A program made the translations under genes and the position numbers. Below the pieces are notes generated by a model. That model made no database searches. It was not told the DNA's origin and saw nothing but the letters and a program-made list of their open reading frames with translations. A DNA stretch of 64,000 nucleotides from Xanthobacteraceae bacterium (GTDB lineage: Bacteria > Pseudomonadota > Alphaproteobacteria > Rhizobiales > Xanthobacteraceae). Within the stretch, counting starts at the first letter, position 1. Each line of letters begins with the position of its first letter. The stretch is taken from positions 5,899 to 69,898 of the forward strand of contig JASHPW010000075.1 in NCBI GenBank assembly GCA_030037895.1. Reading direction: 5' to 3'. This document shows, one piece after another, positions 24,106-43,962 of the stretch.

Positions 24106-24169
24106 TTGTCGGTTGAGCCTGGGCCGATCACACGATATAAAGCGCATTCTCATTGTCCGACAACTCCGG

Positions 24170-27100
24170 ATGGACGGACAGGGGCAAGATACCTGCAGAT
24201 GGCGCCTTGGCTTGGCCGACGTAAGAATCGGCCAAAGATGGAACACCGCCCTTATGCCGCTCGTCGCCCTTGAGATTTTGCCGCAGCCCCACGAATGGCG
24301 AGCGTATGGCGGAACGTGGCGGGGCAACGTTTTCGAGGTCGATCCCGCACTCGTCGCGATCGATTTCAACGAGCCGCTGCTGGTATCACCTGATTTTGCT
24401 CTCAAGGCTGGCCAGTTCATGACCTTTACATTCTCGGCGTATTTCGGCGGCGGCGCTGCTTATTGCCTGCACATCGTCGAGGGTTCCCGCAACCGCCGCG
24501 TCCATAGCCGTCTGTTCGAGGCCATGGACGGCGACGCCCGACTGTCGCTTGCCTTCCGCGCCAGAAAGTCGGGCTCTTACCGGCTGGTTCTGGAGCACTA
24601 CGGACGTCCGAGGCGGAGCAAGCCGACCATCACGGCGCCGTCGGTCTCGGTGCAGGCCGTCGGCGCCGGCGCCGTCCGCAAGGGCCGGCTTGCCGAACTC
24701 AGCGTGGTCGCGGAGGAAAGCGATGACGCTCGCTATCTGCCACATTGGAACCCGATCCAGCGCCTCATTCACCGTCGCTGCCGTGCGTCGCGGGCGTTCA
24801 ACAATATCGTGGCGGCCATCGAGATGCGGCTTGGTCGCGAAGAGCTTCTCAGCCTCCCGCAGTACATGGGCCTTTGCCCGACGGGACAGTGCAATGCGCT
24901 GTGCGATTTCTGCTCGGTCACCATCAACCGCACCGGAATCATCAAGAAGCAATTGCCGTATGACCGCTTGGAAAACTTTTTGGCGCCGGTTACGAATACC
25001 ATACAAATGTATGGGATCGAGGGCAACGGCGAGCCGACGCTGTACACGCGTTTCCCCGAGTTGGTCGAAAGGCTCACGCGCGGGGGCGCCAGGGCCTATC
25101 TCATCACCAACGGCTCCCGGCTGCAGGTCGGCGACGTGCCGCTGCTGCTGACGCTCGCCTCGGTCAGTTTTTCTCTCAACGCCGCCACGGCCGAGACGCA
25201 TCGTTTGATCATGAAGCTGAAAAACTTTGAGGAGATCGGCGAAATCATCCGCGCGCTCGCCCGCGACCGTGGCCGCCCGGATGCTGCTTTGGATAAGGTA
25301 CCGAGCATCTATGTCTCCTTCGTCGTGACCAACGATAATGTCCACGAAGTACAAGACTTCCTGCGTTTTGCTGACCAGGACCTCGGGGTCGATGTCGTTC
25401 TCGTGCGGCCGTTGGCCGAGCTTGGCAACGATTTGGGAACGGTCGAGGACGTGCGTCATATCGTGCCATATGAAAGCGACGTCAGGGACATGACCGAGGC
25501 GGTGCGCGAATACATGCACGACGTTCCCGGAAACGCCGAAATTCGCATCGCACCCGAGACGTTTCGCTCCGTCCGTCCCGATCCGGTGGGACATGTCGTC
25601 ATGCCGCGCGGCTTCGAGGGGCGGCTCCTCGCCCCGCGTCGCGACGATTGGGAGGCGCTGCATCCGGGCGTCGTCGCTGTCTGGCATCTCAACAGCGCGT
25701 GCCTCGTATTTCCGGCCGTCGATGGCGAACTCCTGCGCTCGCAGCCCGTTCCTGTCGAGCCGGAACGCGAGCTGCAATTCAAGGCCCAAATCGCCGTATC
25801 GGGAGAGCCGGTGCGGCTGCTGATCGAAGATGGCGAGCACATGATTGTAGCGGAAGCCGTGCTCGCCGATACCGGCGGCCGGACCATTCCCCTCGAGCTG
25901 AAAATTCAGACCCGCCGCGCGAGCGCGCTCTCGTTCGTGCTTGCAGGTCACGGCCGTGCCGCGCGGTTGGATATCGATTTCGAGCGCCTGCGCACGCCGG
26001 CGCCTTACGTGAGCAGGGAATTTTGCATCCCGCCCAGCAGGCGATGGGAGGTCTGCGTTCCGGGCGCGGACGTGGAGTGGAGCGACGACGTCCTGCGGCT
26101 GCGATCGGCCACGGGCGGAGGGCCCTACCTGCTGAAAAGCTACAGCGTGCCTTGCGCCCGCGACAGCACGATCGAGCTTCCGGTCGAGGTGGACGTGCGC
26201 GAAGGGATGATCGACATCGGAGTTCTCGACCAGGCGGGCGCGTATTTGCAGACTTTCCAATTCGCGTCCGGCCATGCCGCTTCCCGCGTGTTCTTCAATA
26301 CCGGCGGCAATGACGGCGTACAGTTGGTCCTTTCCGCCCCCCCAAATCAGCCGCTCGATGCGGCCATCCGCTGGCTCAAGCCCCGGCTGATCGTGGAGGG
26401 CGACGAAGAGCTTCCGATCCGGCTGCCGAATGCGCCGGAATGGGCGGCCTGTGTGCCGGATTTGCAGATCGATCGACGCGCGGATGGCGTATCTCTGTCG
26501 TGGCAAGGCGAGGGCAGTCCGTACCTGCTCAAGAGCAACAAGGTCCGTTGCCGTCCTGGTCGCGCGACCAACGCGCATGTCCTCGTTCGAGTGGAGGCCG
26601 GCCGTTTATGCCTCGGCGTTCTGGACGGCACCGGCGCGAGGTGGTTGAGAACCGAAACAGTGCGCGAGGGCACGCATCAGGTCCAACTCGACTTCGACGC
26701 CGACGGGAGTGACGGGGTGTTCTTCGTGTTATCCGCGGTCGAAGGCGTCCCGGTGACGGCAAGCATCGACCTCTCGAATAACGGCCTTCTGCGGGGCGTC
26801 CCGGACGCGAAATCGGGCGATCGAGAGTCCCTGCCGGTTCTCGCGCTGGCGGAGGCTGCGGTGCGAAGCGCATCCGATGCGCCGGTAAGGACGATCGATA
26901 GGCGGCCGCCCACGGCCCCGGTGTCGCTCGCGGTTCCGCCCCGAAGGGAAGAGGCGAGCCCGCAGCTTCGGAATGGTCCCGCCGAAGGAGACGCGGCGAT
27001 CAAGACGCCGCCTGGATTCCCGTTGGCACCCGAAGTTCCCTTCTCTCCCGGCGGGCCGGACGGTGCACCGGAACGGATGCCGGCTGCCGCCGCGCAAACC

Positions 27101-27655
27101 TTCATGAACGACTTGGTCGATGCCTCTCCGCTTCGAGCGGTCGAGCCAAGTCGCGGCTCCGCCGCGCGCGATCGAGGGCCGCAGCCGGCCCGCAAAGGGT
27201 CGGAGCGCGCGTTTCCCGCCGTGAAGCGCCCGGCAACCCGCACGCGCTATTATTGTCAAAAGCCATGGACCGATCTCCATAATTTCACCGTTGACGGCCG
27301 CATGGATGTGTGCTGCATCGCCACGGGCGCAAGCCAGGAACGGTATCAGGTTGGAAATCTCACGCGGCAGACCTTTCAGGAAATCTGGAATGGGCCGGTC
27401 ATGCGCGAGTTCCGGCGCACGGTAAATAGCGACAATAAGCTTCCGCCTTGCGCGCGCTGCCCGATGAGCTATGCGTACCAGGGATTCTGGTTCGATCCGT
27501 CCAACACGCGCGACGAGGTGTCGGTTCTAGTGACGGCGATACTAAAAAAATTGCGAATGCTCTGGCTCGCAGGGCCCGCAGCGAAGTTGTGCGATCTTTT
27601 GCTTGACCATGTCGTCTTCAGAGGGTTCAACCGGGAAACGCGTTGGATGAGCTAA
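24170..27655 (+). CDS. Giant radical SAM protein with repeated beta-rich modules, a Pro/Ala-rich linker and a distal SPASM-like Cys-rich domain
   Basis: The CxxxCxxC motif (CNALCDFC) is encoded at 24890-24913, followed by GNGEPTL and a TIM-barrel-like region. Repeated ~100-aa modules lie at about 24290-24607, 25649-25957, 26045-26347 and 26435-26743. A Pro/Ala-rich stretch spans about 26840-27247. YYCQKPWTDLHNFTVDGRMDVCC...GNLTRQTFQEIWNG...PPCARCP lies at about 27248-27472. The track ORF starts at 24023, which is inside the transposon, so the first ATG outside it (24170) is preferred; 24254 is also possible. Confidence 0.85.
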   Translation: MDGQGQDTCRWRLGLADVRIGQRWNTALMPLVALEILPQPHEWRAYGGTWRGNVFEVDPALVAIDFNEPLLVSPDFALKAGQFMTFTFSAYFGGGAAYCLHIVEGSRNRRVHSRLFEAMDGDARLSLAFRARKSGSYRLVLEHYGRPRRSKPTITAPSVSVQAVGAGAVRKGRLAELSVVAEESDDARYLPHWNPIQRLIHRRCRASRAFNNIVAAIEMRLGREELLSLPQYMGLCPTGQCNALCDFCSVTINRTGIIKKQLPYDRLENFLAPVTNTIQMYGIEGNGEPTLYTRFPELVERLTRGGARAYLITNGSRLQVGDVPLLLTLASVSFSLNAATAETHRLIMKLKNFEEIGEIIRALARDRGRPDAALDKVPSIYVSFVVTNDNVHEVQDFLRFADQDLGVDVVLVRPLAELGNDLGTVEDVRHIVPYESDVRDMTEAVREYMHDVPGNAEIRIAPETFRSVRPDPVGHVVMPRGFEGRLLAPRRDDWEALHPGVVAVWHLNSACLVFPAVDGELLRSQPVPVEPERELQFKAQIAVSGEPVRLLIEDGEHMIVAEAVLADTGGRTIPLELKIQTRRASALSFVLAGHGRAARLDIDFERLRTPAPYVSREFCIPPSRRWEVCVPGADVEWSDDVLRLRSATGGGPYLLKSYSVPCARDSTIELPVEVDVREGMIDIGVLDQAGAYLQTFQFASGHAASRVFFNTGGNDGVQLVLSAPPNQPLDAAIRWLKPRLIVEGDEELPIRLPNAPEWAACVPDLQIDRRADGVSLSWQGEGSPYLLKSNKVRCRPGRATNAHVLVRVEAGRLCLGVLDGTGARWLRTETVREGTHQVQLDFDADGSDGVFFVLSAVEGVPVTASIDLSNNGLLRGVPDAKSGDRESLPVLALAEAAVRSASDAPVRTIDRRPPTAPVSLAVPPRREEASPQLRNGPAEGDAAIKTPPGFPLAPEVPFSPGGPDGAPERMPAAAAQTFMNDLVDASPLRAVEPSRGSAARDRGPQPARKGSERAFPAVKRPATRTRYYCQKPWTDLHNFTVDGRMDVCCIATGASQERYQVGNLTRQTFQEIWNGPVMREFRRTVNSDNKLPPCARCPMSYAYQGFWFDPSNTRDEVSVLVTAILKKLRMLWLAGPAAKLCDLLLDHVVFRGFNRETRWMS

Positions 27656-27739: not shown

Positions 27740-28888
27740 GTGGTGAGTGCGGACAATCATGCCAGACGCGTGTTGGTCGTCGTGGGTACTAGGCCGGAAG
27801 CCATCAAGATGGCGCCGGTCGTCCACAGCCTGACCGGCTGCGATGGGATCGAGCTTCGTCTATGCGTGACGGCGCAACATCGCTCCATGCTGGACGAAGT
27901 GCTGCGCGTGTTTGATCTGAGACCGGATTACGATCTGGCAATCATGCGGCCCGGGCAGACCATTTCCGGCGTTGCCGGCATGGTGCTTCGCGAGCTCGAT
28001 CCCATTCTTGAGGAATGGCGTCCCGATTGGCTATTGGTCCAGGGCGACACCACGACGACGATGGCCGCCTCGCTGGCGGCATTTCATCGCCGCATCGCGG
28101 TGGGCCATGTCGAAGCCGGACTGCGCACGCACGATGTGATGAATCCGTGGCCCGAGGAGGCCAACCGCCGCATCACCAGCATCGTCACGAAGCGCCACTA
28201 TTGTCCGACCGAGCGCGCCCGGCAAAGCCTGCTCGACGAGGCCGTCCCCGACGACGCAATCATCGTCACCGGCAACACCGTTGTCGACGCATTGAACATG
28301 GCCGTGGCGACGCTCGAACGTTCGCCCGGCATTCGCGATGAGCTGAGCCATCGGTTCAACGGATTCGGCGATAATCGACGCGTGATCTTGGTTACCGGTC
28401 ATCGGCGGGAAAGTTTTGGCGAAGGATTTCGGCAGATCTGTTGCGCCCTGGCCAAACTCGCCGAGCGCGAGGATGTTCAAATCGTTTATCCGGTTCATCT
28501 CAACCCCAATGTTCAGGCGCCGGTCTTCGAGACGCTCGGCAACCGGGAGAGGATCAAACTGATCGAGCCGGTGGATTATCTCGCCTTCGTGTGGCTGATG
28601 CAGCGCAGCTTCTTTATTCTGACCGACTCCGGCGGCGTGCAGGAGGAAGCGCCGGCCCTCGGAAAGCCGGTGCTGGTCATGCGCGACGCCACCGAGCGGC
28701 CCGAGGCGATCGAGGCAGGAAGCGCGCGTCTCGTCGGAACGAAGGTCGAAAGAATCGTAGCTGAATGCGAAGCGCTGCTCGACCAGCCGCATCATCACAG
28801 AGCCATGAGCGCCGTCCGCAATCCATTCGGAGACGGACTCGCGGCGCGCCGCATCGCACGAGACTTGATGAATGAGTGCCGCGTTTGA
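27740..28888 (+). CDS. wecB: UDP-N-acetylglucosamine 2-epimerase (non-hydrolysing)
   Basis: VLVVVGTRPEAIKMAPVV, VQGDTTT, HVEAGLRT and DSGGVQEEAPALGKPVLVMR are present. Confidence 0.9.
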   Translation: MVSADNHARRVLVVVGTRPEAIKMAPVVHSLTGCDGIELRLCVTAQHRSMLDEVLRVFDLRPDYDLAIMRPGQTISGVAGMVLRELDPILEEWRPDWLLVQGDTTTTMAASLAAFHRRIAVGHVEAGLRTHDVMNPWPEEANRRITSIVTKRHYCPTERARQSLLDEAVPDDAIIVTGNTVVDALNMAVATLERSPGIRDELSHRFNGFGDNRRVILVTGHRRESFGEGFRQICCALAKLAEREDVQIVYPVHLNPNVQAPVFETLGNRERIKLIEPVDYLAFVWLMQRSFFILTDSGGVQEEAPALGKPVLVMRDATERPEAIEAGSARLVGTKVERIVAECEALLDQPHHHRAMSAVRNPFGDGLAARRIARDLMNECRV

Positions 28889-30122: not shown

Positions 30123-30150
30123 ACGAGGTGCCGACGGACGAACGACAGGC

Positions 30151-32802
30151 ATGAGGCAAGTTCTATTCAGCAGCACGAAAGCGCTGGTGGCCCGTATGCC
30201 CAGACCGAGCGTCGAGGCCGGTGCGGTCCTGGTTCGCACGCACTACTCGCTCATCAGTACGGGCACCGAGATTGCTTCGCTGAAGCCGCTGAGCGCCGGA
30301 GCCGCCGGCGCGACCGCTGCCGAGCGCGTCGGCGATCTTTCCGGGCGGGCCAGAGTGTACCTGGGCAAGGCCCTCGCCGACCCGCGGCGCGCGATTGATC
30401 GCGCCATGGGCCTCGCCGGCACCGTGTTGCGCCGGCGCTTGGCGGACGCAATTCCGCGGCCGGATTTGCCGCCGGTCCCGGTCGGTTCGATCAAATGGAC
30501 GCGGCAGTCTGCCGGCACCTGCGAGGTCTCCGGCGGCGGGCTCACGCTCGTCTCCGCCGGCGATCCCGGGCATTATCAGGCCGCATCCCAGCCGATTGAG
30601 GTCGCACCCGGCTATCTTCTCGAGATACGCCTCAAAGGACGCGTCGATAAGGGCGCCTTCATGCTCGGCCTCCTGAATGACGACAAATCGCGCTGGCTCG
30701 GCATGGTGCCAATCTCGGAAGGCCCGCTCGACGAAGTGCTGCATTTGGACCCCGGGCAGGCGAAAGAAGTGACGCTGATGCTGACGAATCCGGCCGCCGC
30801 GGGCGAGAACCGCATGGCGCTCGAGCGATCGGATGTGGTCATGGTCCCGCCGGTGAGCGCGGGCGTGCCGGTGACGGAGATGACCGATCAAGGCTGGAAT
30901 GTCGGTTATTCGATCGCCGGCGAGGTCGTTGAGGTGGGTGCCGGCGTGACGGCCTTTGCTGCCGGCGATCGGGTTGCCTGCGCCGGCGCCGGCCAAGCCA
31001 ACCACGCCGACTATGTTTGCGTAAAGCGCAACTTGGTTTGCCGGGTGCCCGACGGTTGTTCGCTGCGGGAGGCGGCCACGGCGACCGTGGGCGCCATTGC
31101 CATGCAGGGGGTGCGCCGTGCCGCCCCGCAGCTCGGCGAGGTGATATGCGTTTTTGGCCTCGGCCTGGTCGGGATGATCACCGTTCAGCTCTTGCGTGCA
31201 GCCGGCTGCCGGATCATCGGCGTCGATCTCGACGCCGAGCGCTGCCGGCGCGCCGTTGCCAGCGGTGCCGCCGCGGCGGAGACCGAGATCGATCGCGTGC
31301 AGCTTCTCTTGCGTGAATTTACCGGCGGTCATGGCGTTGATGCGACCATCCTTACCGCGGCGACCAAATCCAATGGGCCGATCAACACGGCGATGGAGCT
31401 GACGCGCCGACACGGCCGGGTCGTGATCGTCGGCGATGTCGGCCTCAAGGTCGAACGCGCCGCCTTCTATCGCAAGGAAATCGACCTGCTCATGAGCACG
31501 TCGTACGGCCCCGGCCGCTATGACCGTGATTACGAAGATTACGGGCGTGATTATCCCTATGGTTTTGTGCGCTGGACCGCCAACCGCAACATGCAATCCT
31601 ATATGGAGCTAATCGCGGAGAAGCGAATCGACGTCGCTTCGCTTATCGATCGCGTGGTCCCGATCGACGATGCCCCGGCGACCTACGAGGAGTTGGCGTC
31701 AGGCGCGCAGACGCCCCCGCTGGCGGTGGTGCTGTCCTACCCGAAACCCGCTCGCGTCCAGCTCGATGCTTTTGATGCGGCGGTGATCCGCTTGCGGGGA
31801 CATCGCCAGCCGATCCGCGCGCGCATCAATTATGCGCTGGTCGGCGCAGGAGGGTTTGGCACCCAAATGCTCGTGCCGACGATGGAGCGGCGCAAGGATC
31901 GATTCTTCCTGCGCGCGGTGGTGAGCCGGGATGCAACGCGCGGCGGCAATTTCGCCCGTTCCAAGCGGGTCGAGCTGCTGTCGTCGAACTATGACGATGT
32001 CCTGGCAGATGAGGCCATCGACCTCGTGGTCATCGCCACGCGGCACAACGAACACGCGGCACAGGTGATCAAAGCGCTGCGGGCCGGCAAGCATGTCTTC
32101 GTCGAGAAGCCGCTCGCGATCAATTGGGAACAGCTCGACGCCGTGCGCCGCGAAGTCGAAACGCGCGGCGACTCTGCGCGGCTGATGGTCGGATTTAATC
32201 GGCGGTTCGCGCCGGCCTTGCAGCGCTTGCGTCAGGAACTCGGAGAGCAACGCACGCCGCTTGTGGTCAATTATCGCATTCATGCCGGCTATCTCCCGCT
32301 GGATCATTGGGTGCACGGGGCGGAGGGCGGCGGCCGCAACATCGGCGAAGCCTGCCACATGTACGACGTCTTCAGTTTCCTCGCCGGCGCTCCGGTTTGC
32401 TTCATCGATGCCAGGGCTATTGATCCCGGCGATCGCGCTTATGCGCGCAACGATAATTTCTGCGCAACGATCGGCTACGAGGACGGCAGCCTCTGCACCC
32501 TGACCTATACGGCCTTGGGACCGAAAGCCGGCCTGGCAAAGGAGCGCATCGAGGTCTTCGCCAACGGCGAGGCGTGGATCGTCGACGATTTCGCCAGCCT
32601 CACCCGGACGAGCGATGGCGCCGTGCTGTGGTCGGCGCCTGCCGCCGACAAGGGTCATTTCGAAGAGTTGTCCCGTTTCGGCGACGCGATTGCGGAAGGC
32701 AAGCCTGCGCCCGTTCCCGCAGAAGAGCTCTTGCAAACCACGGCGGTGGCTTTGCGTGTCGAAGATTTGCTGTTCGGCCGCGCGGCCGAGGAGCCGGATT
32801 GA
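30151..32802 (+). CDS. Bi-domain oxidoreductase (MDR zinc-alcohol-dehydrogenase-like + Gfo/Idh/MocA) with a ~110-aa inserted module
   Basis: An MDR N-terminus (VLVRTHYSLISTGTE) is followed by an insertion at about 30487-30825. The MDR fold then resumes (GYSIAGEVVEVGAGV...VFGLGLVGMITVQLLRAAG). The Gfo/Idh/MocA half reads INYALVGAGGFGTQ...EKPLA. Confidence 0.8.
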   Translation: MRQVLFSSTKALVARMPRPSVEAGAVLVRTHYSLISTGTEIASLKPLSAGAAGATAAERVGDLSGRARVYLGKALADPRRAIDRAMGLAGTVLRRRLADAIPRPDLPPVPVGSIKWTRQSAGTCEVSGGGLTLVSAGDPGHYQAASQPIEVAPGYLLEIRLKGRVDKGAFMLGLLNDDKSRWLGMVPISEGPLDEVLHLDPGQAKEVTLMLTNPAAAGENRMALERSDVVMVPPVSAGVPVTEMTDQGWNVGYSIAGEVVEVGAGVTAFAAGDRVACAGAGQANHADYVCVKRNLVCRVPDGCSLREAATATVGAIAMQGVRRAAPQLGEVICVFGLGLVGMITVQLLRAAGCRIIGVDLDAERCRRAVASGAAAAETEIDRVQLLLREFTGGHGVDATILTAATKSNGPINTAMELTRRHGRVVIVGDVGLKVERAAFYRKEIDLLMSTSYGPGRYDRDYEDYGRDYPYGFVRWTANRNMQSYMELIAEKRIDVASLIDRVVPIDDAPATYEELASGAQTPPLAVVLSYPKPARVQLDAFDAAVIRLRGHRQPIRARINYALVGAGGFGTQMLVPTMERRKDRFFLRAVVSRDATRGGNFARSKRVELLSSNYDDVLADEAIDLVVIATRHNEHAAQVIKALRAGKHVFVEKPLAINWEQLDAVRREVETRGDSARLMVGFNRRFAPALQRLRQELGEQRTPLVVNYRIHAGYLPLDHWVHGAEGGGRNIGEACHMYDVFSFLAGAPVCFIDARAIDPGDRAYARNDNFCATIGYEDGSLCTLTYTALGPKAGLAKERIEVFANGEAWIVDDFASLTRTSDGAVLWSAPAADKGHFEELSRFGDAIAEGKPAPVPAEELLQTTAVALRVEDLLFGRAAEEPD

Positions 32803-34928: not shown

Positions 34929-35787
34929 GTTTGATGCGCAGCAAATACAAGCGAGAGAGGGCTGGTCGGTGTCCGCGGCGCTTGAGACTGACGATTTTTA
35001 CAAGGATGAGGTTCGCCGCCAATGGGACCGGGATCCTTGCGGCTCTCACTACGTCGAGCAAGCCCAGCCGGACACGCTCGAATGGTTTCTTGAGGCCGAA
35101 CGCTATCGCTATGACGTGTACGCGCCATGGATGCGCGAACTCATGGAGTTTGACCGGCATGCCAGCGAGGTCATTCTTGAAATCGGCGCCGGCATGGGCA
35201 CCGATCACGCGCAGTTCGCGAAAAACGGGGGCGTCATGCACGACATCGATCTCGCCGCGGGTCATCTGAAGCTGGCGCGGCGCAATTTCGAGCTCCGCGG
35301 ATTGCACGGCACGTTCCTGCACGGCGACGCCGAAGCGATCCCTTATCCTGACGGCACTTTCGATCTCGTTTACTCCAACGGCGTGATCCACCACACTCCG
35401 AATACGGCGTGCGTCGTCGCGGAGATCTACCGGGTGCTCAAGCCCGGTGGCCGCTGCATCATCATGGTCTACGCCGAGAATTCGCTGCACTATTGGCGGA
35501 ATTTGTTCCGCGATTATGGGATTTCTCGCGGCGAACTCGAAATGGCGTCGATGGGCGAAATCATGTCTCGCTATGCCGAGTTGTCGGAGCATGGGGCGAA
35601 ACCGCTGGTGAAGGTTTACACCGCACGCCGCCTGAGACATTTGTTCGCACGATTCAAATCGATCCGTATCTACAAGCGACAGCTCATGCGCGAGGAATTG
35701 CCGCGACGCTTGCGCTCGCTGCCGCTTGGTTTGGCCGGGCGGATGATGGGCTGGAACCTCATCCTCAAGGCGCAAAAGCCGTGCTAG
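34897..35787 (+). CDS. Class I SAM-dependent methyltransferase
   Basis: ILEIGAGMGTD is motif I. DAEAIPYPDGTFDLVYSNGVIHHTPN and LKPGGRCIIMV are also present. The start is uncertain; the ORF overlaps the upstream gene by 32 nt. Confidence 0.8.
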   Translation: MYLLSISHRIRFDAQQIQAREGWSVSAALETDDFYKDEVRRQWDRDPCGSHYVEQAQPDTLEWFLEAERYRYDVYAPWMRELMEFDRHASEVILEIGAGMGTDHAQFAKNGGVMHDIDLAAGHLKLARRNFELRGLHGTFLHGDAEAIPYPDGTFDLVYSNGVIHHTPNTACVVAEIYRVLKPGGRCIIMVYAENSLHYWRNLFRDYGISRGELEMASMGEIMSRYAELSEHGAKPLVKVYTARRLRHLFARFKSIRIYKRQLMREELPRRLRSLPLGLAGRMMGWNLILKAQKPC

Positions 35788-35797
35788 CTCGGCGAGA

Positions 35798-37888
35798 TTG
35801 CCGCCCGCAGGGTTCGGCCGGCGCCGGTCGCGCGGTGCTCACGAGACGCGAGCCGCGCCGAACGTGACCGTCTCCCGTGTCGCCGAAACATTGGTGCAGC
35901 GCGCCCGCGAGGCGCTGAGACGCGGACCCAAGGGGGCAGACGCCGCGCCGGACGATTTCGGCCGCGCGCTCGCCAAGGCCGGTCTCGCCTTTCCGCGCTG
36001 GCTGCAACGGCGCCGAATCGCCCCGCGTCAATATGTCGAGCTGGCGCTCCCCCATTTGGTTTCGCTGCGCGCCACCGCGCCGAAGGCGGTCGAGGCGACG
36101 GTCGCCGCTGCCGCCGGCTTCCTGCAACATCGGTTCGATCTGCTCGGCAGCGGGCCGTATCGTCCCGCCGATCCCGAACGGCCGGCTCGCGACGGCTACG
36201 CTCCGATCGACTGGTATCTCGATCCCGTCCGCCAACTGCGCTTTCCGCGCGGCGTGCCTTACAAGGAATGGCGTCTCTATGAGATGCGGCCGGGCCAAGC
36301 CGACATCAAATATCCCTGGGAGCTTGCGCGCTCGCAGCACTGGCTGACTATCGCGCAAGCCTGGCAGCTTTCGCGCGACATCCGTTTCGCCCGTGAAATT
36401 GCCTTCCAGCTCGACAATTTCATCGAGGCGAATCCGGTCGGCGTCGGCGTCAATTGGACCTGCACCATGGATGTGGCCATCCGCGCCGCCAATTGGTGCC
36501 TGGCGCTCGCCCTGCTGCTCGACTGCCCGGCGCTCGACGAGGCGTTTTGGCGGCGGGCTTTCGCCGCGCTCTACGATCATGCGGTCTTTATCTTCACCAA
36601 TCTCGAGAACAAATATGAGGTCACCAGCAATCATTATCTGAGCAATCTCGTGGGGCTGCAGGTGCTGGCTTCCGAGTTTTCCGATCTCGCAGCCGGTGCG
36701 GAATGGAACCGTTGGTCTCGCCAGGCGCTGGAGACAGAGATGACCGTCCAGGTGCACGACGAAGGCACCGACTTCGAATCGTCGGTTCCGTATCACCGCC
36801 TGGTCACCGAACTGTTCATGGCTTCGGCGCGGCTGGCGCGGCTTCAGCAACAGCCGCTGAGCGCCGCCTTCGAATCGAAGCTGGCGCGCATGGCGGATTT
36901 CTCGCTCGCGGTCGCGCGTCCGGACGGCCGCATGCCGGTCATCGGCGATGCCGATGACGGGCGCTTTCATATCTTCAGCCATTTCGGCGGTTGGGATCGA
37001 CAGGACGCCCGTCACCTGCTGGCGCCGGCGGCGCTCCTCTTCGGTCGCCGCGAGCTGTTCGCGGCCGCGGGCCCGGGAGCGGCGTGGGAGGCGGCCTGGT
37101 GGGGCTTCGATCCGGCGGAGGCGACCTCCGGCGGCGCGCCTTTACCGGAAGCATGCGCGTTGTACCCGGCATTCGGCATTGCCGTGGCGCGCCGTGGCGG
37201 GCACTATCTGGCGATAACCAATGGTCCCGTCGGCACTCGCGGCTTCGGCAATCACAAGCACAATGAGCTTCTGAGCTTCGAATACCATTGCGACGGCGTT
37301 CCGCTCGTCGTCGATCCCGGCAGCTTCGTCTATACGTCGGACTTTGCCGCTCGCAATCTGTTCCGCGGCACCGCCTACCACAACACGGTCATGGTCGACG
37401 GCGTCGAGCAGAACGAATTCAATCCCGAGTGGATTTTCCGGATGTTCGAGAAGGCCGATCCGGAGCACCTGCATTTTGCCAAGGAAGACGAGCTTGTGCG
37501 TTACCGCGGCCGCCATAGAGGCTATAATCGGCTGGCGCAGCCGGTGATGCACGAGCGGGAGTTCGTTTTCGACCTGCGGGATGGAAGCTTGCGCATCGAG
37601 GACACGCTTGAGGGTGAGGGCATGCACGACATGCGCTGGCATTTCCATTTTGCCCCCGCCGTTTCGGTCATCGCGCAGACGACCGACCGGCTCACGCTGA
37701 GAGCGGCCGGTCTGATGAGCCTGGTCCTGTCCTTCGATCCGGACTTGAGCGCGACCGTTGTCGACGCCTGGTATTCGCCCTCATACGGCGTGCGTGTGCC
37801 GGTGCGGGCGGTGAATTTGGCTTGCCACACGGTGCTCGCCGGACGTAAGTCGTGGAAATTCTCGGTCGCGGCTTCGAGCGGGAGATGA
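35798..37888 (+). CDS. Heparinase II/III-like protein (copy 1), no obvious signal peptide
   Basis: YPWELARSQHW, NHYLSNLVGL and YHRLVTELF are present, and the C-terminal half has GNHKHNELLSFEYHCDGVPLVVDPGSFVYT...AYHNTVMVDG. The start is a TTG at 35798 or a GTG at 35867. Confidence 0.8.
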   Translation: MPPAGFGRRRSRGAHETRAAPNVTVSRVAETLVQRAREALRRGPKGADAAPDDFGRALAKAGLAFPRWLQRRRIAPRQYVELALPHLVSLRATAPKAVEATVAAAAGFLQHRFDLLGSGPYRPADPERPARDGYAPIDWYLDPVRQLRFPRGVPYKEWRLYEMRPGQADIKYPWELARSQHWLTIAQAWQLSRDIRFAREIAFQLDNFIEANPVGVGVNWTCTMDVAIRAANWCLALALLLDCPALDEAFWRRAFAALYDHAVFIFTNLENKYEVTSNHYLSNLVGLQVLASEFSDLAAGAEWNRWSRQALETEMTVQVHDEGTDFESSVPYHRLVTELFMASARLARLQQQPLSAAFESKLARMADFSLAVARPDGRMPVIGDADDGRFHIFSHFGGWDRQDARHLLAPAALLFGRRELFAAAGPGAAWEAAWWGFDPAEATSGGAPLPEACALYPAFGIAVARRGGHYLAITNGPVGTRGFGNHKHNELLSFEYHCDGVPLVVDPGSFVYTSDFAARNLFRGTAYHNTVMVDGVEQNEFNPEWIFRMFEKADPEHLHFAKEDELVRYRGRHRGYNRLAQPVMHEREFVFDLRDGSLRIEDTLEGEGMHDMRWHFHFAPAVSVIAQTTDRLTLRAAGLMSLVLSFDPDLSATVVDAWYSPSYGVRVPVRAVNLACHTVLAGRKSWKFSVAASSGR

Positions 37889-38724
37889 TTGTGGCCGTCG
37901 TCGGACCAGCCTTGCATAGTCGGCCGGAGGCCGCCGCCCGCGTGTTCCTGCGTGACCTGTTCCGCCACCGGCTGCTGCTCTCGTCGACCACGCGAATCGA
38001 ATTGCAGAAGCGATACGCCGGATCTGTGCTTGGTTTCGCCTGGGTCTTTCTCAACCCGCTTCTGTTCCTGGGGGTTTATCTTTTCCTCTATCTCGTCGTG
38101 TTCAAGATGCGCCTGCCGGAGATGAGCGAACTCGGCTTCGCCGTGTTCGTGTTCAGCGGGCTCGTCCCCTATATGGGCTTCATGGAAGTAGCGAGCGGCA
38201 GCGTCGGGTTGATGAAGGCAAATCTTCACTTCGTGAAGAATCTGCTGTTCCCGATCTCGCTGTTGCCGGTGCGCATGGCCCTGATCGCCCTCGTATCGGA
38301 GCTGGTCGGGCTCGCCATGGTCATTGTGCTTTCCGGATTGGACGGCCAATTATCCGCACAACTGGCGCTGCTGCCTGTCGTGGTGCTGTTGCAATTCCTG
38401 TTCTTCGTCGGAATTGCATTCCTGTTCTCGGTGTTCGGAATGATGCTTCCGGATTTCGGCTATTTCCTGAACACATTTCTGCTGTTCATTCTTTTTGTCA
38501 CGCCGATCGGGTTCCAACCCGGTATGGTGCCGTCGCGGTTGAGGCTGGTCGTCATCTTCAATCCCTTCTACTACATGATCGACGCCTTCAGGTCGGCCCT
38601 GCAGGCAACCCACGGTGTCCGCTGGGCCGGCATCGGCGTCTTCGCGGCGATGTCGATCATCGTGTTCTATCTTGGCGCCGCATGTTTCCGGCGCTTCCAA
38701 ACCCATCTGGTCGATTATGAATAA
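37885..38724 (+). CDS. wzm: ABC-2 type polysaccharide exporter permease (Wzm-like)
   Basis: The ATG at 37885 overlaps the upstream stop (ATGA). The N-terminus ELQKRYAGSVLGFAWVFLNPLL is typical of ABC-2 permeases, and about 6 hydrophobic helices follow. Confidence 0.85.
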   Translation: MIVAVVGPALHSRPEAAARVFLRDLFRHRLLLSSTTRIELQKRYAGSVLGFAWVFLNPLLFLGVYLFLYLVVFKMRLPEMSELGFAVFVFSGLVPYMGFMEVASGSVGLMKANLHFVKNLLFPISLLPVRMALIALVSELVGLAMVIVLSGLDGQLSAQLALLPVVVLLQFLFFVGIAFLFSVFGMMLPDFGYFLNTFLLFILFVTPIGFQPGMVPSRLRLVVIFNPFYYMIDAFRSALQATHGVRWAGIGVFAAMSIIVFYLGAACFRRFQTHLVDYE

Positions 38725-40657
38725 GATCGCCTTTGCCGGCACGGACCATGACTTTGCCGTTCGCGCCAGAAATTTGCGCAAGGTCTACCGTCTGTATCGC
38801 AAGCCGTCGCATCGTTTGCGCGATATTCTCGGCCTCCTGCCCAACGATTCGCGCTATTTCAGCGAGCAAGTCGCGCTGCATGATATGACGCTCGACATCC
38901 GCCGCGGCGAGAAGGTCGCGATCATCGGCAGAAACGGCGCCGGCAAGAGCACGCTGTTGAGGCTGATCACGCGCGTCGTCCAACCGACCGCCGGCCTTCT
39001 GTCGGTGAACGGCGAGACGCAGGCGCTGCTCTCGTTGGGGACGGGTTTCCACCCGGAAATGACTGGTCGGCAGAACGTGCAGGCTTATCTCGCCAATTTC
39101 GGCATCTTTGGCGACAAGGCGGCGCGCATGCTCGATGAGATCGTCGATTTTTCCGAGCTCGAAGAATACATCGATCAGCCGACCAAGACCTATTCGACCG
39201 GCATGAATGTGCGGCTGATGTTCGCGGCTTCGACTATGTTCTTGCCCGATCTTCTGGTCATCGACGAAGTGCTTGGAGTCGGCGACGCCTACTTCCAGGG
39301 CAAAAGCTTCGAGCGCATTCGCGAGATCTGCACCGGCAAAGGCACCACTTTGCTGCTGGTCACCCATGACGTGTATACCGCGAGCAGCCTGTGTGAGCGC
39401 ATGATCTGGCTCGACCATGGCGCCATTGTCCTCGATGCCGACAGCCCGACCGTGCTGCGGGCTTACGATACCTCGGTCCGCCAGCAAGAAGAGGCGCGCC
39501 TGCGCAAAAAAGCGCTGCTCGGCGCGCAGCGGATAACGGAAATGGCGCGACGCAACGACGTGCCGGTGTTGATCGAGTTGCGCAGCCCGGAGAATGCACC
39601 GCTGCCATCGCCCGTCGCTATCGCCCGCGTCGCCCTGATCGACGGTGAGCGCGCGTGGCCGGCGGCCGTCGTCGATGAGGCGGGAGCGTCGGCGGCGATG
39701 GGCCGGCTGGTGAAGGAAAGCGGATCGTGGGGTGACGTGGTCACCTGGCAGGGCCGGCAAGCCCGGCAGATGAATCACTATGGCTCCGCCATCCACAAGG
39801 TTGGAATTTGCTTTTTCTTGCCAGCGGGGCTAGTCGATCGCGCCGATCAAATGCGGCTTGAAGTTGAACTGGGCAGCGACCAAGCCTGCCGGCTCGAGGT
39901 TTGGCGCATCGACGCCGATGTGCACGCCCGTCGCCTCGTCACGGCCGAGACCACGCCAGGCGAATGGATCCTGCTGCGGACGGCTCTTGCGGGAGAGACC
40001 GCGGCCGGGATCGAAAAATCGGTGCAACAGCCTACGCCATTCGAGCAGGCGCCTTTGCCGGCCGAGGATTCTATGTCAATCGCGGCGGATCAAAGCATGA
40101 TTCATGTGCCTGGAAGCACGGCGGCGGCGCAAAGCGCGGCCGAACAGCGATTGCCGAAATCCAATACAATCTCTGCCGCTCCAATGGAACACCACGGCAG
40201 CGGCCGCGTCGTTGTGACAGGGGTGCGTATCCTCGACGATAATGGCCGGGAGGCGCTGCAACTCGAACACGGGAAACCCGTCAGCATCATCATCGGCTAT
40301 CAAATCAATGATGCCGCCTTGAAGGAGCATTGTCAGGTCGTTCTTGCCTTCAGGCGTAACGGAGTTGAAGACGTGTTCCGGCTGTTCGGCAAGGAGCTGT
40401 TGTTCGATGCGTCGACGGCTCCGCAAGGCGAGATCGTGCTGCGCCTCGACCGAATGCCGTTGGGGGCGGCGGAATATTCTTTGACGATTCTCGTCGCCGC
40501 GGAAAACTACTATGAGGAGCGGCCGACGACCTTTTACACCGTCAACCCGAAGGTATATTGGGCGGCGCGCGAGGTAATCGATATCAAGGTCGTCTCCAAC
40601 CATCTGATTCCGAAGGGGACGGGTGTGGTGGGCGAGGCGAGTTGGTCGCTGCGTTGA
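38717..40657 (+). CDS. wzt: Polysaccharide ABC exporter ATP-binding protein (Wzt-like) with a ~400-aa C-terminal extension
   Basis: The protein starts MNKIAFAG at 38717, overlapping the wzm stop by 8 nt. Walker A is GRNGAGKST, the signature is YSTGMNVRL and Walker B is LLVIDEVL. An extra middle module (about 39584-40060) is followed by a terminal Wzt_C-like module (about 40200-40654: VVVTGVRILDDNGREALQLEHGKPVSIIIGY...). Confidence 0.85.
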   Translation: MNKIAFAGTDHDFAVRARNLRKVYRLYRKPSHRLRDILGLLPNDSRYFSEQVALHDMTLDIRRGEKVAIIGRNGAGKSTLLRLITRVVQPTAGLLSVNGETQALLSLGTGFHPEMTGRQNVQAYLANFGIFGDKAARMLDEIVDFSELEEYIDQPTKTYSTGMNVRLMFAASTMFLPDLLVIDEVLGVGDAYFQGKSFERIREICTGKGTTLLLVTHDVYTASSLCERMIWLDHGAIVLDADSPTVLRAYDTSVRQQEEARLRKKALLGAQRITEMARRNDVPVLIELRSPENAPLPSPVAIARVALIDGERAWPAAVVDEAGASAAMGRLVKESGSWGDVVTWQGRQARQMNHYGSAIHKVGICFFLPAGLVDRADQMRLEVELGSDQACRLEVWRIDADVHARRLVTAETTPGEWILLRTALAGETAAGIEKSVQQPTPFEQAPLPAEDSMSIAADQSMIHVPGSTAAAQSAAEQRLPKSNTISAAPMEHHGSGRVVVTGVRILDDNGREALQLEHGKPVSIIIGYQINDAALKEHCQVVLAFRRNGVEDVFRLFGKELLFDASTAPQGEIVLRLDRMPLGAAEYSLTILVAAENYYEERPTTFYTVNPKVYWAAREVIDIKVVSNHLIPKGTGVVGEASWSLR

Positions 40658-40678
40658 CCACGGCCGGCAGCGGTGCAG

Positions 40679-41773
40679 TCAAGCGATCAGGCGGATCGAA
40701 TGGATGATTAACTCCGAGGTTGCAGGCGATGTTGGTTGCACGTTCGAGACGACGATCTGGAAAGCTTTGGGCATCTTCTCCAAGTTGACATAGCAGCGCT
40801 GCCGACCAAGGCGGCTCACGGTCTTCGACAGCAGGAATCGATTTGCTGCGGGATCGAGCAGGCCAACGGACGCCCCGCCACTGGCGACATCCATATCTAC
40901 TTCCAGCGCAAGGGCCTGCGGCGGCGTGTCGATCAGGGGAAACGTGATCGCGTAATGGAATTGATTGCAGCCGGTGACGATCCGCAGGTTTCCTTCATCG
41001 GTCAACGTCGCTTCTGCGTCCGCTGTCATAAAAGTGCGTAAGGGCACGTCATGAACTATGGTTCGGCCGAAACGAGCCGTCTGCGCCGCGAAAATCCGCC
41101 GCGCATGTTCGTAAAGCCGGTAGTCAAATTCGTGGAACTCACGGATAGCCGATCTCACATCGTCGTCAACCATCTCGGTTCTGGTGATGGCGTTTAGATG
41201 CGGGACATCGACGTCGGTGATGTTGCTTGCCCGGAAGGTTCGCATGGCACTTTCATCGAAATGTTCATAGATACCAACGACGGCGCGGCTGACGTTCTCC
41301 TTGGCTGCGGCAAGCATGTCCTCGTTGACGGCGCCGATCGGAATGCTCATCATGCAGCGCAACGGGTCGGCGCCGAACTGCTCGATGTCAATATCTGCCA
41401 TTCGGCGCGTCTGGCCGTTGTCGCGCATGACTGTCCATGCGTTCCGCGCATACTCCAACAGACCGACAGACTTGGCATAGTCGAAGATGACAGTCCCTGG
41501 GACCGATCGCGCATGAAAGTAGGATGAGACGAGACGGTTCACCGGATCCCTGAGCCAGACGATATAGCGAACCGGTTTGGTCAGGAACGCATCGATGCCG
41601 AACGGCATGTGGCCAGCAAGCAGCTCGAAGCTGTCACGCTCGGCCTGCGAGAGAGAAAAGAATGTGCGAAAATCATCGGCCTCGCTGAGACGTATATACC
41701 TTCGCAAATGCCGCCGCAGCGCCTCTGTTACACTGGTGCCTCCGGTCCGTGGCGTGTGGATAAAGACAATCAG
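40679..41773 (-). CDS. Sulfotransferase with a C-terminal ~110-aa accessory module; start codon non-canonical or lost
   Basis: The track ORF (40679..41707) starts at a TTG that lies downstream of the 5'-PSB loop. The same frame stays open up to 41800 and encodes ...HPVLIVFIHTPRTGGTSVTEALRRHL. The 3'-PB motif WLRDPVNRLVSSYFH is present. The only upstream in-frame candidates are CTG (41791, 41773) and ATT (41770). The 5' end given here is provisional. Confidence 0.65.
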   Translation of the reverse strand: MIVFIHTPRTGGTSVTEALRRHLRRYIRLSEADDFRTFFSLSQAERDSFELLAGHMPFGIDAFLTKPVRYIVWLRDPVNRLVSSYFHARSVPGTVIFDYAKSVGLLEYARNAWTVMRDNGQTRRMADIDIEQFGADPLRCMMSIPIGAVNEDMLAAAKENVSRAVVGIYEHFDESAMRTFRASNITDVDVPHLNAITRTEMVDDDVRSAIREFHEFDYRLYEHARRIFAAQTARFGRTIVHDVPLRTFMTADAEATLTDEGNLRIVTGCNQFHYAITFPLIDTPPQALALEVDMDVASGGASVGLLDPAANRFLLSKTVSRLGRQRCYVNLEKMPKAFQIVVSNVQPTSPATSELIIHSIRLIA

Positions 41774-41859
41774 GACCGGGTGCCTTTCCAGCTTGGGTGT
41801 TTAAAACGCAGAAAATCGTCGCCGCGTCGATCATTTGTGCTTTGCGGAGCCGGGTTCAT

Positions 41860-43962
41860 TCATAATAACCCTTTCTTCGATCGCGTCATGATGAGTTCGC
41901 GGAGCTGCGGATCGCGCTCCATGCGTCGAAACCGCTCCGCATCCTCGCCGCGCAGCTCCGACAGCCCGTAGATCGAATAGTTGAACAGTTCGACGTCAAT
42001 GTCTTCATGTCCGATCTGCTGCAGCATCCAGACCACTTCTGCGGAGGTGTACTCGCGGTGATGGCCCTCGAAAGGAGGCTCCACATCGAATTGGAGTTGG
42101 ATTGGAGGCGCAATCGGTCGGCCTGCGGCCAGCTTTTCCCGCGTATAGAGGTACGAGAGGTTGGGCGTCTCCAAGATGAGCGTGCCGCCCGGTCGCAGCA
42201 CCCGATCGAGCGCGAGCAACAGCGGCCTGGGCGTGTGCGCGACGTGCTCGATGACGCCGAGGCAGAGCACGGCATCGTACGAATTCTCTCCAATCCGGCC
42301 GAGATCGGATGCCGCGTCGCGACCGAGGTCAATGACCCCGATGTCCGCCGACCGCAGCAGGGAAAGTGTTTTTTTGAACGCATCGCCGTAGGAGCCGTAC
42401 TGGTCGGCCGCGTCCACCTCAAAACCAAGCTTCCGCGCAAACAGCGAAAAATTTCCGAAATATGCGCCAAAATCGAGAATCCTGCCCTTTTCCAATCCTG
42501 CCGCGCGCAGTGCCGCGCCGACGCGAACCATGCGGATCGCGCCGAGGCGGATGTAATTCGTCCAGTCGTAATTTTCCAACCCCGGCGAATGCTGCGCCAG
42601 GGGCGCGAAATCAGACCCGGGAATCGTCTCCAGGACCGCGTTCGTCGCCGCCCACGCAGCGCCGAATTGCTGCGGGTACTGCTCCTCCAAGCAGGAGGGA
42701 AATCGCAGCCGCACTGGCGCGGCAAGGCCCCGGCCCGTTGGCACTTCCAATACAGGTTGTTGCAACAGCGCAACGCGATGAAGAACGAAGCGCGATATTC
42801 CGGGCCGATCCTGGCGAAAATTGGAGATGATCACCTTCCACCGGGAAGGGATTGCGTCGAAGGCAAAGACATGCTGATGCCGCCCGCGTTGCCAGATAGC
42901 CTGGGCAAACGCAAAGGCGTCTTGCTCCGCGTTCAATAGTCCGACTGATATTGCCCCTTGATCCAAGCTGACTTCGACGAGGATGGCATTAGCCGGCAGC
43001 ACCGTGGCGCCGTCGTGGACGTTGCTCGCAAGAGCGTATCCGAAGCTGTTTTGGAACGTTTCGACGCAGAGTCCCGCCGGCGCCCGGTGCGACTCCGCAT
43101 CCACCGGCTGAAACTCCCCCAGATCGACTTCGCAGATCTTCGCTTCGGTGGTCATGCACGCCGGCTGGAAAAATAACGCTGGCCGCTCGGCAGCGCGGCG
43201 CAACTCGTACCAGACAAACCAATCCTGGTTCCAAAATTGTCGCCGGGCGATGTACACGGCGTCTCCGAAGATCAGGTCAAGCTTTTCGTCGTCATGCCAA
43301 TCCGACCACGGGCAATGCTCGTCGCCGACGCTCGGGTCCGACGCCCGGGCAAAAGTCGGCGCATCGAATTCTTCCGGCGATGACCAGCCACAGCTCGCAT
43401 GGGCGAATTCCCAAGTATAGAGCATAAGGACAATGCTTCCTCCGGGCGCGAGAGAATTCAGGCATCGGGCCGCCAGCCTGCGCTGTAATGATTCCGGCAT
43501 CGTCATCAACGAGCCATATAGGAAGACCACGTCAAAGGGTCCCATCAGATCATGATCGGGGCCGGAACTGAAAATAAAATTCATTCCCGCGACACCCTTT
43601 GCGGCGGCCACCCGCCTGATCACCTCCAGGTTGCTCCCAATGATGTCGCAGCAAGTCACGCGAGCGCCATGTATTTGGTAGTAAATCTCGTGCAGTCCCA
43701 GGCCGGAGCCGATCGACAGCACGCGCTTGCCGGCGAATTCACCAGACATTTGCCGTAAAAACGCGTTTTCTTCCGGATACCGCAGGAAGCGACTTTTGAA
43801 AGCCTCGTCCCAGATGCGGTTGAGCTCCGTATCATTCAAATTCAGCAGCGAGGAAGTATCATGTTTTCCGGCGCCGGAAGGCGCAAAGCGCCAGTAGGTC
43901 CGGGAAGCCCGCAAGTCGAAACTAGCGGGCGCGTCGGCATCGGTTCTTTTGCCAATGTTCAT
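41860..43962 (-). CDS. Dual class I SAM-dependent methyltransferase with a central accessory module
   Basis: The first methyltransferase domain reads VLSIGSGLGLHEIYY...FDVVFLYGSL...LAPGGSIVLM. The central module lies at about 42760-43152. The second reads ILDFGAYFGNFSLFA...YDAVLCLGVIEHV...LRPGGTLILETPN. The start ATG at 43962 overlaps the upstream stop (ATGA). Confidence 0.8.
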   Translation of the reverse strand: MNIGKRTDADAPASFDLRASRTYWRFAPSGAGKHDTSSLLNLNDTELNRIWDEAFKSRFLRYPEENAFLRQMSGEFAGKRVLSIGSGLGLHEIYYQIHGARVTCCDIIGSNLEVIRRVAAAKGVAGMNFIFSSGPDHDLMGPFDVVFLYGSLMTMPESLQRRLAARCLNSLAPGGSIVLMLYTWEFAHASCGWSSPEEFDAPTFARASDPSVGDEHCPWSDWHDDEKLDLIFGDAVYIARRQFWNQDWFVWYELRRAAERPALFFQPACMTTEAKICEVDLGEFQPVDAESHRAPAGLCVETFQNSFGYALASNVHDGATVLPANAILVEVSLDQGAISVGLLNAEQDAFAFAQAIWQRGRHQHVFAFDAIPSRWKVIISNFRQDRPGISRFVLHRVALLQQPVLEVPTGRGLAAPVRLRFPSCLEEQYPQQFGAAWAATNAVLETIPGSDFAPLAQHSPGLENYDWTNYIRLGAIRMVRVGAALRAAGLEKGRILDFGAYFGNFSLFARKLGFEVDAADQYGSYGDAFKKTLSLLRSADIGVIDLGRDAASDLGRIGENSYDAVLCLGVIEHVAHTPRPLLLALDRVLRPGGTLILETPNLSYLYTREKLAAGRPIAPPIQLQFDVEPPFEGHHREYTSAEVVWMLQQIGHEDIDVELFNYSIYGLSELRGEDAERFRRMERDPQLRELIMTRSKKGLL

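Follow-up and report, generated by a model that had tools for sequence, protein, structure and literature searches.

Why should several unrelated enzymes of one bacterial polysaccharide locus carry the same accessory segment, and what might that segment recognise? The question is raised by a 64,000-nt stretch of DNA from a Xanthobacteraceae bacterium (assembly GCA_030037895.1, contig JASHPW010000075.1, positions 5,899 to 69,898 of the forward strand), which we call the window. A first-pass annotation, made from the letters alone, had noticed in it a recurring segment of about 100 amino acids on four proteins: four times on a radical S-adenosylmethionine (SAM) protein and once each on a bi-domain oxidoreductase (MDR-GFO, joining a medium-chain dehydrogenase/reductase part to a GFO_IDH_MocA part), a sulfotransferase and a dual methyltransferase. 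The seven segments are copies of one domain, hereafter the module, whose predicted fold is that of carbohydrate-binding modules (CBMs) and which might target cytoplasmic tailoring enzymes to a growing polysaccharide.

Seven copies of one domain

The translations of the seven segments equal the peptides quoted in the first-pass annotation, and Pfam and NCBIfam domain matches agree with the identities that it had assigned to the four host proteins (Table 1). Pairwise phmmer comparisons link rSAM_3 to rSAM_4 (1e-14), rSAM_4 to MDR (1e-7) and Sulfo to MT (1e-12). When a hidden Markov model (HMM) seeded with rSAM_4 is iterated over the 588 six-frame open reading frames (ORFs) of the window, it converges on five copies (rSAM_3, rSAM_4, MDR, Sulfo and MT) and takes in no other ORF, and a profile-profile alignment with hhalign joins rSAM_3, rSAM_4 and MDR on one side to Sulfo and MT on the other over 85 columns (P = 2.3e-6). 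With the five-copy profile alone, the divergent copies rSAM_1 (P = 0.09) and rSAM_2 (P = 0.005) fall short of significance. Profiles built from homologues close this gap. A deep HMM, rebuilt from the domains of database homologues, matches rSAM_2 at 2.8e-15 over the full HMM length, together with rSAM_3 (1.9e-32), rSAM_4 (1.5e-29), MDR (3.7e-26), Sulfo (1.2e-18) and MT (4.1e-16), and residues 478-592 of the homologue P0033, apparently at the rSAM_2 position, are matched directly by the five-copy profile (5e-7). For rSAM_1, a profile made only from the N-terminal copies of radical SAM homologues, canonical copies excluded, aligns with the five-copy alignment over 114 columns (hhalign P = 5e-8, 94.8% probability); on the window ORFs it matches only the radical SAM protein itself (envelope at amino acids 115-243 of ORF 23930-27652) and the MDR module (3.6e-7). 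Because these homologue-built profiles connect rSAM_1 and rSAM_2 to the five-copy set, the seven segments are homologous copies of one domain of about 115 amino acids, and the claim that a single accessory module recurs on four unrelated catalytic scaffolds holds.

Table 1. Module copies, their host genes and the exporter genes in the window (positions of the window)
Feature	Position	Strand	Remarks
rSAM_1 module copy	24272..24658	+	divergent; N-terminal, precedes radical SAM core
rSAM_2 module copy	25649..25993	+	divergent; first of three tandem copies in the interval between radical SAM core and SPASM
rSAM_3 module copy	26045..26386	+	canonical
rSAM_4 module copy	26441..26779	+	canonical; sequence used for the first structure model
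MDR module copy	30496..30834	+	insertion in MDR-GFO, within its GroES-like part (ADH_N)
Sulfo module copy	40691..41032	-	C-terminus of the sulfotransferase
MT module copy	42769..43110	-	separates the two domains of the dual methyltransferase
Radical SAM/SPASM gene	24254..27655	+	four copies; Pfam Radical_SAM and SPASM
MDR-GFO bi-domain oxidoreductase gene	30151..32802	+	one copy; Pfam ADH_N/ADH_zinc_N and GFO_IDH_MocA
Sulfotransferase gene	40679..41803	-	one copy; whole stop-to-stop frame including both stops (TAA 41801-41803); Pfam Gal-3-0_sulfotr
Dual methyltransferase gene	41860..44004	-	one copy; Pfam, two class-I methyltransferase domains (amino acids 95-189 and 510-611)
Wzm and Wzt exporter genes	37852..40657	+	Pfam ABC2_membrane (Wzm), ABC_tran and Wzt_C (Wzt); no module copy on either

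Could the pattern nevertheless be no domain at all, only a composition artefact of beta-rich, high-GC coding sequence, as the first-pass annotation itself had allowed? The poor scores of rSAM_1 and rSAM_2 against the five-copy profile would fit that idea, to which we give practically no chance. Besides the two profile-profile P-values and the deep-HMM score of rSAM_2, the iterated search picks out only the ORFs of its five copies among the 588, reversed sequences give zero matches, 440 database relatives have discrete boundaries and the structure models described below are confident and concordant. The artefact is excluded on these grounds.

The extent of the module needed a correction. The segments as first drawn are sound; their end is not, since the domain continues for about 20 amino acids beyond the 'SN' motif at which they had been closed and thereby gains its last beta-strand. 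Neither the deep HMM run on the window ORFs nor hhalign of individual candidates found an eighth copy in the window: the N-terminal region of a glycosyltransferase family 4 (GT4) protein (hhalign P = 0.19), Wzt (P = 0.14) and a 791-aa methyltransferase protein (deep HMM domain E = 22) were considered as such and rejected.

How the copies came to be on these hosts can be read in part from their closest relatives. The rSAM_4 and MDR copies are up to 56% and 54-82% identical, respectively, to their counterparts in homologous proteins, and 35% or less to any other copy in the window. Because they are closer to the homologous proteins than to their neighbours, the copies within the radical SAM and MDR-GFO proteins look vertically inherited, and a recent duplication within the locus is rejected for them. 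The Sulfo copy is closest, at 40%, to P0046, a copy borne by a methyltransferase, and this resemblance suggests an older domain shuffling.

A predicted jelly-roll of the carbohydrate-binding type

What kind of domain is it? The first-pass annotation had recognised no named family, and indeed the four window proteins have, at E<=0.1, no Pfam or NCBIfam match over any of the seven segments. A sequence search of the PDB found no relative either, the best match being an antibody chain at E = 1.7. Structure prediction is more informative. The AlphaFold2 (AF2) model of rSAM_4, computed from a 76-sequence alignment, has a pLDDT of 94.0, a pTM of 0.86 and ten beta-strands, and that of the divergent rSAM_1, computed from its own 20-sequence alignment, reaches a pLDDT of 93.4 and is all-beta apart from one short helix; counted as strands of three or more residues, the models hold nine to ten. 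In Foldseek comparisons with the PDB both find the same top neighbour, the porphyran-binding CBM 8xmz_A (E = 3.5e-5 for rSAM_4). Further neighbours of the rSAM_4 model are CBM4-2 (4bj0, 1k42), CBM4 (1gui), CBM16 (2zex), CBM22 (4mgs), the hyaluronan-binding CBM70 (4d0q) and CBM6, whereas for rSAM_1 the list continues with CBM16, CBM4, CBM6 and C1q heads. Over the two models the CBM neighbours have TM-scores of 0.55-0.66 and E-values of 3.5e-5 to 1e-3. The best of them (0.61-0.66) fit better than the C1q, CENP-C cupin and Ena fibre matches, which stay at 0.36-0.47. Thus, the prediction that the copies share one fold is borne out by two concordant models, and this fold, a two-sheet sandwich that superposes on solved CBMs, would place the module in the beta-jelly-roll class (CBM fold family 1), whose domains measure about 110-170 amino acids.

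At the sequence level the relation to known CBMs is faint. No window copy reaches the Pfam gathering threshold of CBM_4_9 (PF02018), CBM_35_2 (PF18099) or other CBM families of the GBD clan, and among 76 modules taken in isolation only sub-threshold matches appear, to CBM_4_9 in 2 (best E = 0.0073) and to CBM_35_2 in 1 (4.5e-4), none of them a window copy. The C1q family (PF00386) overlaps one module, residues 541-617 of P0015 (E = 2.6e-5), at 24.9 bits for a cut-off of 23.7 and with no single stretch passing alone; P0015 and one other protein are the only C1q matches among 144 homologues, and zero window copies match. On the strength of the models, then, the module is a new sequence family with the predicted fold of type-B CBMs (CBM4/16/22/6-like).

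Which residues might bind a sugar? Leaving aside aliphatic residues and glycine, the most conserved positions are W3 (100%), Y30 (77%), S34 (67%), W70 (57%, with F in a further 21%) and D64 (46%, otherwise S or N); across hosts and phyla, conservation is strong at W3, G56, Y30 and W70. The set W3/Y30/S34/D64/W70, aromatic plus polar, would suit sugar binding, and these positions, taken from the alignment alone, are our candidate binding residues.

A widespread family and its polysaccharide clusters

The module has many relatives. An exhaustive search of 1.84 billion proteins with the five-copy profile returned 440 representatives at E<=1e-3, of which 112 at E<=1e-10, where each representative stands for a 50%-identity cluster, so that the family counts 440 or more clusters. 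A word-indexed search had returned 0 proteins with the five-copy profile and 2 with the 76-sequence profile; the index misses this family and the exhaustive search succeeded. In the relatives the module is again a discrete unit of about 115-120 amino acids, N-terminal, C-terminal or internal. It stands alone or in series that reach four or more, and its copy number varies among homologues. Pfam annotation of the 144 best representatives gave as partners radical SAM/SPASM (about 50), class-I methyltransferases (about 12), ADH/GFO oxidoreductases (3), PMT_2 glycosyltransferases (3), GT4 glycosyltransferases (2) and a sulfotransferase (1), with single examples each of an FkbM methyltransferase, GDSL and Sel1/TPR. 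Many representatives have no Pfam catalytic domain, and some barely exceed one module (P0071, 149 amino acids). The module also has the contiguity by which CAZy describes a CBM, being a discrete fold fused to GT4, PMT_2 and glycan-tailoring enzymes in polysaccharide clusters. The expectation that other genomes would carry it on further enzymes of the same pathway is thus confirmed, and on one contig it is joined to Wzt sequence. We found no literature specific to the module family, to this type of cluster or to radical SAM/SPASM enzymes in O-antigen loci.

The four hosts in the window have neither a signal peptide nor a transmembrane segment predicted, and they require cytoplasmic cofactors (SAM, 3'-phosphoadenosine 5'-phosphosulfate (PAPS) or NAD(P)). 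In the radical SAM ORF (24023-27655, plus strand) Radical_SAM occupies amino acids 286-450 and SPASM 1078-1147, and the copies fall in the roughly 200 residues ahead of the former and the roughly 600 between the two that are otherwise unannotated. This mechanical ORF begins at a TTG at 24023; the alignments with the homologues P0001 and P0003 begin at the Met at 24254, which is the likely start, and the first 77 codons are probably untranslated. The MDR-GFO protein is of a very common form of about 880 amino acids, with 6959 homologues at E<=1e-20, several of which, from Roseiarcus, Hyphomonadaceae, Hyphomicrobiaceae and Gemmataceae, carry the name 'bi-domain-containing oxidoreductase' in their source records; its closest named relative is a protein from a Roseiarcus sp. 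metagenome-assembled genome (MAG), at 73% identity. The module is present in 117 of the 120 best homologues. A 708-aa paralogue in the related cluster L006 is without the module region, its amino acids 1-45 and 81-706 corresponding to 1-45 and 241-874 of the window protein, and the module therefore lies within a net insertion of about 160 amino acids in the GroES-like domain. The dual methyltransferase has a homologue, P0120, with which it shares 51% identity over about 690 amino acids.

The start of the sulfotransferase gene is unusual. From its first canonical start, a TTG at 41707, the ORF runs over 40679-41707 on the minus strand, and the PAPS-binding 5'-PSB loop 'HTPRTGGTS' lies in frame upstream of any ATG, GTG or TTG, within 41710-41803. 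Between the TAA that opens the frame and the TTG only CTG, ATT and ATC codons could be used, and the public gene calls, of 309 and 342 amino acids, both exclude the loop. Judging from the reading frame, either this gene uses a non-canonical start or its product would be made without the PAPS loop.

In the window the hosts belong to a cluster that runs from a UDP-N-acetylglucosamine 2-epimerase and a UDP-N-acetylmannosamine (UDP-ManNAc) dehydrogenase through MDR-GFO, GT4, a methyltransferase and a heparinase II/III-like protein to Wzm and a Wzt with a C-terminal Wzt_C domain, and continues after Wzt on the other strand with the sulfotransferase, the dual methyltransferase, the 791-aa methyltransferase protein and AsnB. 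We compared it with six related loci, L002 and L006 to L010, of each of which roughly 20 kb could be seen (22 kb for L008 and L010). The core, which occupies 27740-40657 in the window, is conserved across Alphaproteobacteria and Planctomycetota, and its order recurs in these six, from Planctomycetota, Gemmataceae, Hyphomicrobiaceae and metagenomes: epimerase, ManNAc dehydrogenase, MDR-GFO, GT4, methyltransferase, heparinase-like protein, Wzm and, where seen, Wzt. Wzm is found in 7/7 clusters, with Wzt additionally seen in 4/7, and five of the seven encode two to four different module-bearing proteins. These are four in the window; four in L002, a Planctomycetota MAG (a radical SAM protein, two methyltransferases, of which one has its module at the N-terminus and the other, of 1029 amino acids, at the C-terminus, and a 447-aa protein of unknown type); four ORFs in L009, a Hyphomicrobiaceae MAG, one of them a methyltransferase with four copies; MDR-GFO and GT4 in L006; and MDR-GFO and a radical SAM protein in L007. 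In L008 and L010 there is one such protein, MDR-GFO. A scan of a genome collection with the whole radical SAM protein yielded L002 as a useful locus, and L003 and L004 as weak, radical SAM-only loci with no module. One further contig, from JGI metagenome 3300036805, holds an ORF open to the contig edge (L005, 3-587, plus strand) that matches the extreme C-terminus of the window Wzt over 34 amino acids (56% identity); a linker and a module copy come next, an arrangement suggestive of Wzt fused to the module in a relative.

Several features of the neighbouring genes are worth recording. The window Wzt gene (38615-40657, plus strand) encodes about 260 residues without a Pfam match (amino acids ~260-525), from ABC_tran to Wzt_C, the latter at amino acids 525-636. 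The N-terminal region of the window GT4 (32799-33608, plus strand) has a conserved domain of about 100 amino acids, shared with the homologue P0130, followed by a linker of about 160 amino acids without a Pfam match; the window GT4 has no module, P0130 (53% identity in the glycosyltransferase domain) has one, and GT4 homologues carry one to three copies at the linker position, so the window protein either lost its module or never gained one. The 791-aa protein (43959-46334, minus strand) consists of about 600 N-terminal residues without a Pfam match and a C-terminal methyltransferase, and its gene overlaps that of the dual methyltransferase by 46 nt; homologues of both are fused in the metagenome protein P0081 (1677 amino acids), with a module at the end. 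Other core genes are also fused in relatives: methyltransferase to heparinase-like protein in L008 and L009, GT4 to methyltransferase in L007 and L010, and heparinase-like protein to GT4 in L002. Just upstream of the window cluster, a 273-aa ORF (22844-23665, plus strand) has a weak match to the AbiEii nucleotidyltransferase toxin (E = 3.6e-4, below the Pfam threshold). Since the GC content falls to 0.55-0.56 over 20-24 kb from about 0.63 in the cluster, this region may be the cluster boundary. Finally, by analogy with glycosaminoglycan biosynthesis, a cytoplasmic heparinase II/III-like protein beside a sulfotransferase and uronic-acid genes hints at epimerisation and sulfation at the level of the polymer.

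A glycan reader on biosynthetic enzymes?

What would a carbohydrate-binding fold do on enzymes that build a polysaccharide? The textbook setting of a CBM is a secreted enzyme that degrades glycans. Among cytoplasmic, biosynthetic systems the only established one is, to our knowledge, that of Wzt, which checks the chain cap before export. The module is like the type-B jelly-roll CBMs (CBM4, CBM9, CBM16, CBM22, CBM6/35) and the porphyran-binding CBM 8xmz in fold and size, and like them it is appended singly or in tandem to catalytic domains, the likeness extending in sequence to the few faint Pfam matches mentioned above. It differs in its hosts, for the known ones sit on secreted enzymes that degrade glycans and the module, for which carbohydrate binding is predicted from the models, sits on cytoplasmic biosynthetic and tailoring enzymes.

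The first-pass annotation had drawn an analogy with the C-terminal domain of Wzt. As a matter of logic the analogy stands: Wzt_C (PF14524) is a beta-sandwich at the cytoplasmic side of ABC-transporter-dependent glycan pathways (PMC11231755) and is present in the same cluster as the module. As homology it fails. The module profile aligned with the whole window Wzt gives only the hhalign value already quoted, Pfam finds Wzt_C in Wzt alone and no Wzt CBM structure is among the 50 Foldseek matches listed. Moreover, in its prototypes Wzt_C reads the chain cap from its place on the exporter, while all seven window copies of the module are on enzymes, and a fusion with a Wzt tail was seen on one related contig only. 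The only published precedent that we found for a CBM-like domain carried by a cytoplasmic enzyme is the Klebsiella pneumoniae O7 terminator ORF6, for which Kelly et al. (2024, PMC11231755) describe a predicted CBM-like domain of immunoglobulin fold whose function was not pursued; the same paper states that CBMs were not identified in other terminator enzymes and calls this case unprecedented. There, too, the putative CBM is part of a cytoplasmic, methyltransferase-containing enzyme in an ABC-transporter-dependent O-antigen pathway. The two differ, as far as a comparison by description goes, in that ORF6 is one enzyme with an immunoglobulin-like domain, whereas the module is a predicted jelly-roll on up to four enzymes per cluster and in 440+ clusters. 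What is new here is the sequence family and its deployment as a common module on cytoplasmic biosynthetic enzymes; the fold is known.

In ABC-transporter-dependent pathways the glycan is completed on its lipid carrier at the cytoplasmic face and is then exported (PMC11231755). We propose that the module is an autonomous beta-jelly-roll domain which soluble, cofactor-dependent enzymes in the cytoplasm, all of a conserved Wzm/Wzt pathway of this kind, have acquired through fusion, insertion and tandem duplication. It would bind the nascent polymer, by one of its features, while this is still lipid-linked at the cytoplasmic membrane face. Such binding would concentrate the radical SAM enzyme, the oxidoreductase, the methyltransferases and the sulfotransferase (and in relatives GT4) on one substrate before export, with tandem copies adding avidity. 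As a corollary, module-bearing enzymes, MDR-GFO included, would act on the polymer rather than on nucleotide-sugar precursors. Since the module is found on four different enzymes here and on enzymes of similar clusters elsewhere, it probably directs them to the same sugar polymer. We infer both its ligand and its targeting role from the predicted fold and this distribution, and we give about an even chance to the reading of the module as a cytoplasmic glycan-binding domain that recruits tailoring enzymes to the nascent polymer.

Several observations weigh against this reading. Foldseek gives E-values of moderate strength, about 1e-4 to 1e-5, and no TM-score exceeds 0.66. In two of the seven clusters (L008 and L010) the module is on MDR-GFO only, within the 22 kb seen, and the window GT4 has none where P0130 has one, which implies that at least some of these enzymes can dispense with it. 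Lastly, the jelly-roll fold serves protein-protein contacts too, C1q heads being near the rSAM_1 model and C1q giving a weak Pfam match. From this last point grows the rival explanation to which we assign the largest share, although we think it unlikely: the copies would associate with each other, or with Wzm/Wzt, to form a tailoring complex at the membrane without touching the glycan. C1q/TNF-type jelly-rolls oligomerise, several module-bearing proteins co-occur per cluster, the Wzt-tail fusion could provide a docking partner for the enzyme-borne copies, and the many representatives without a Pfam catalytic domain, some of them near-single modules, might be assembly parts. The structures nonetheless favour glycan binding, because the best neighbours are monomeric CBMs and the C1q, CENP-C cupin and Ena fibre folds superpose less well. 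C1q/TNF-like heads in particular, although ten-stranded jelly-rolls like the module, fit it only at TM-scores of 0.36-0.45, and they are extracellular, eukaryote-type, trimerising domains. Tandem arrays within one polypeptide are, besides, typical of avidity-type glycan binding, and L008 and L010, which count against a general targeting role, count against assembly as well, since a single module-bearing protein has no homotypic partner in the stretch seen.

Could the module instead hold its hosts to the membrane, by binding phospholipid head groups or the undecaprenyl-diphosphate end of the intermediate? The hosts are predicted to be soluble although their substrate is membrane-anchored, beta-sandwich domains can bind lipids, and C1q heads in complex with phosphatidylserine (2jg8) figure in the Foldseek list. 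Yet no lipid-binding domain of C2, PH or discoidin type is among the 50 matches listed for either model, the conserved residues are aromatic or polar with no basic patch, and a simple anchor would hardly need as many as four copies in one protein, all of which makes this option improbable in our view. Less probable again is an inert spacer or ruler, without any ligand, that sets distances between catalytic domains or from the membrane. It would be natural for a spacer to separate domains, as the module separates the two methyltransferase domains and the radical SAM core from SPASM, and to differ in copy number among homologues. The strong conservation of W3, G56, Y30 and W70 across hosts and phyla would not be natural, and a spacer makes no sense at protein termini, as in the sulfotransferase and the L002 proteins, or in representatives that are little else than one module.

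Returning to the glycan-binding reading, its furthest extension, which we hold as tentative and somewhat less probable than the reading itself, is that a new family of cytoplasmic CBMs would give the enzymes of a pathway one common address label. The pathway would be a widespread Wzm/Wzt glycan pathway found in Alphaproteobacteria and Planctomycetota, in which all enzymes that tailor the polymer itself, and now and then the exporter, would have the same reader of the nascent polymer; recognition of the substrate, rather than a protein scaffold, would coordinate modification with export. If the module does bind glycan, ABC-transporter-dependent glycan assembly would have substrate recognition at a second level, that of the enzymes. 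The module would then also be a simple genomic marker that separates enzymes acting on the polymer, after polymerisation, from sugar-nucleotide enzymes, and the enzymes so marked would include the common 'bi-domain-containing oxidoreductase' of about 880 amino acids and a large radical SAM/SPASM group of unknown function; for glyco-engineering it might offer a portable tag. Should docking be its role, the module would instead encode how a multi-enzyme tailoring complex is put together. Either way, a family of this size merits a domain model of its own in Pfam/InterPro.

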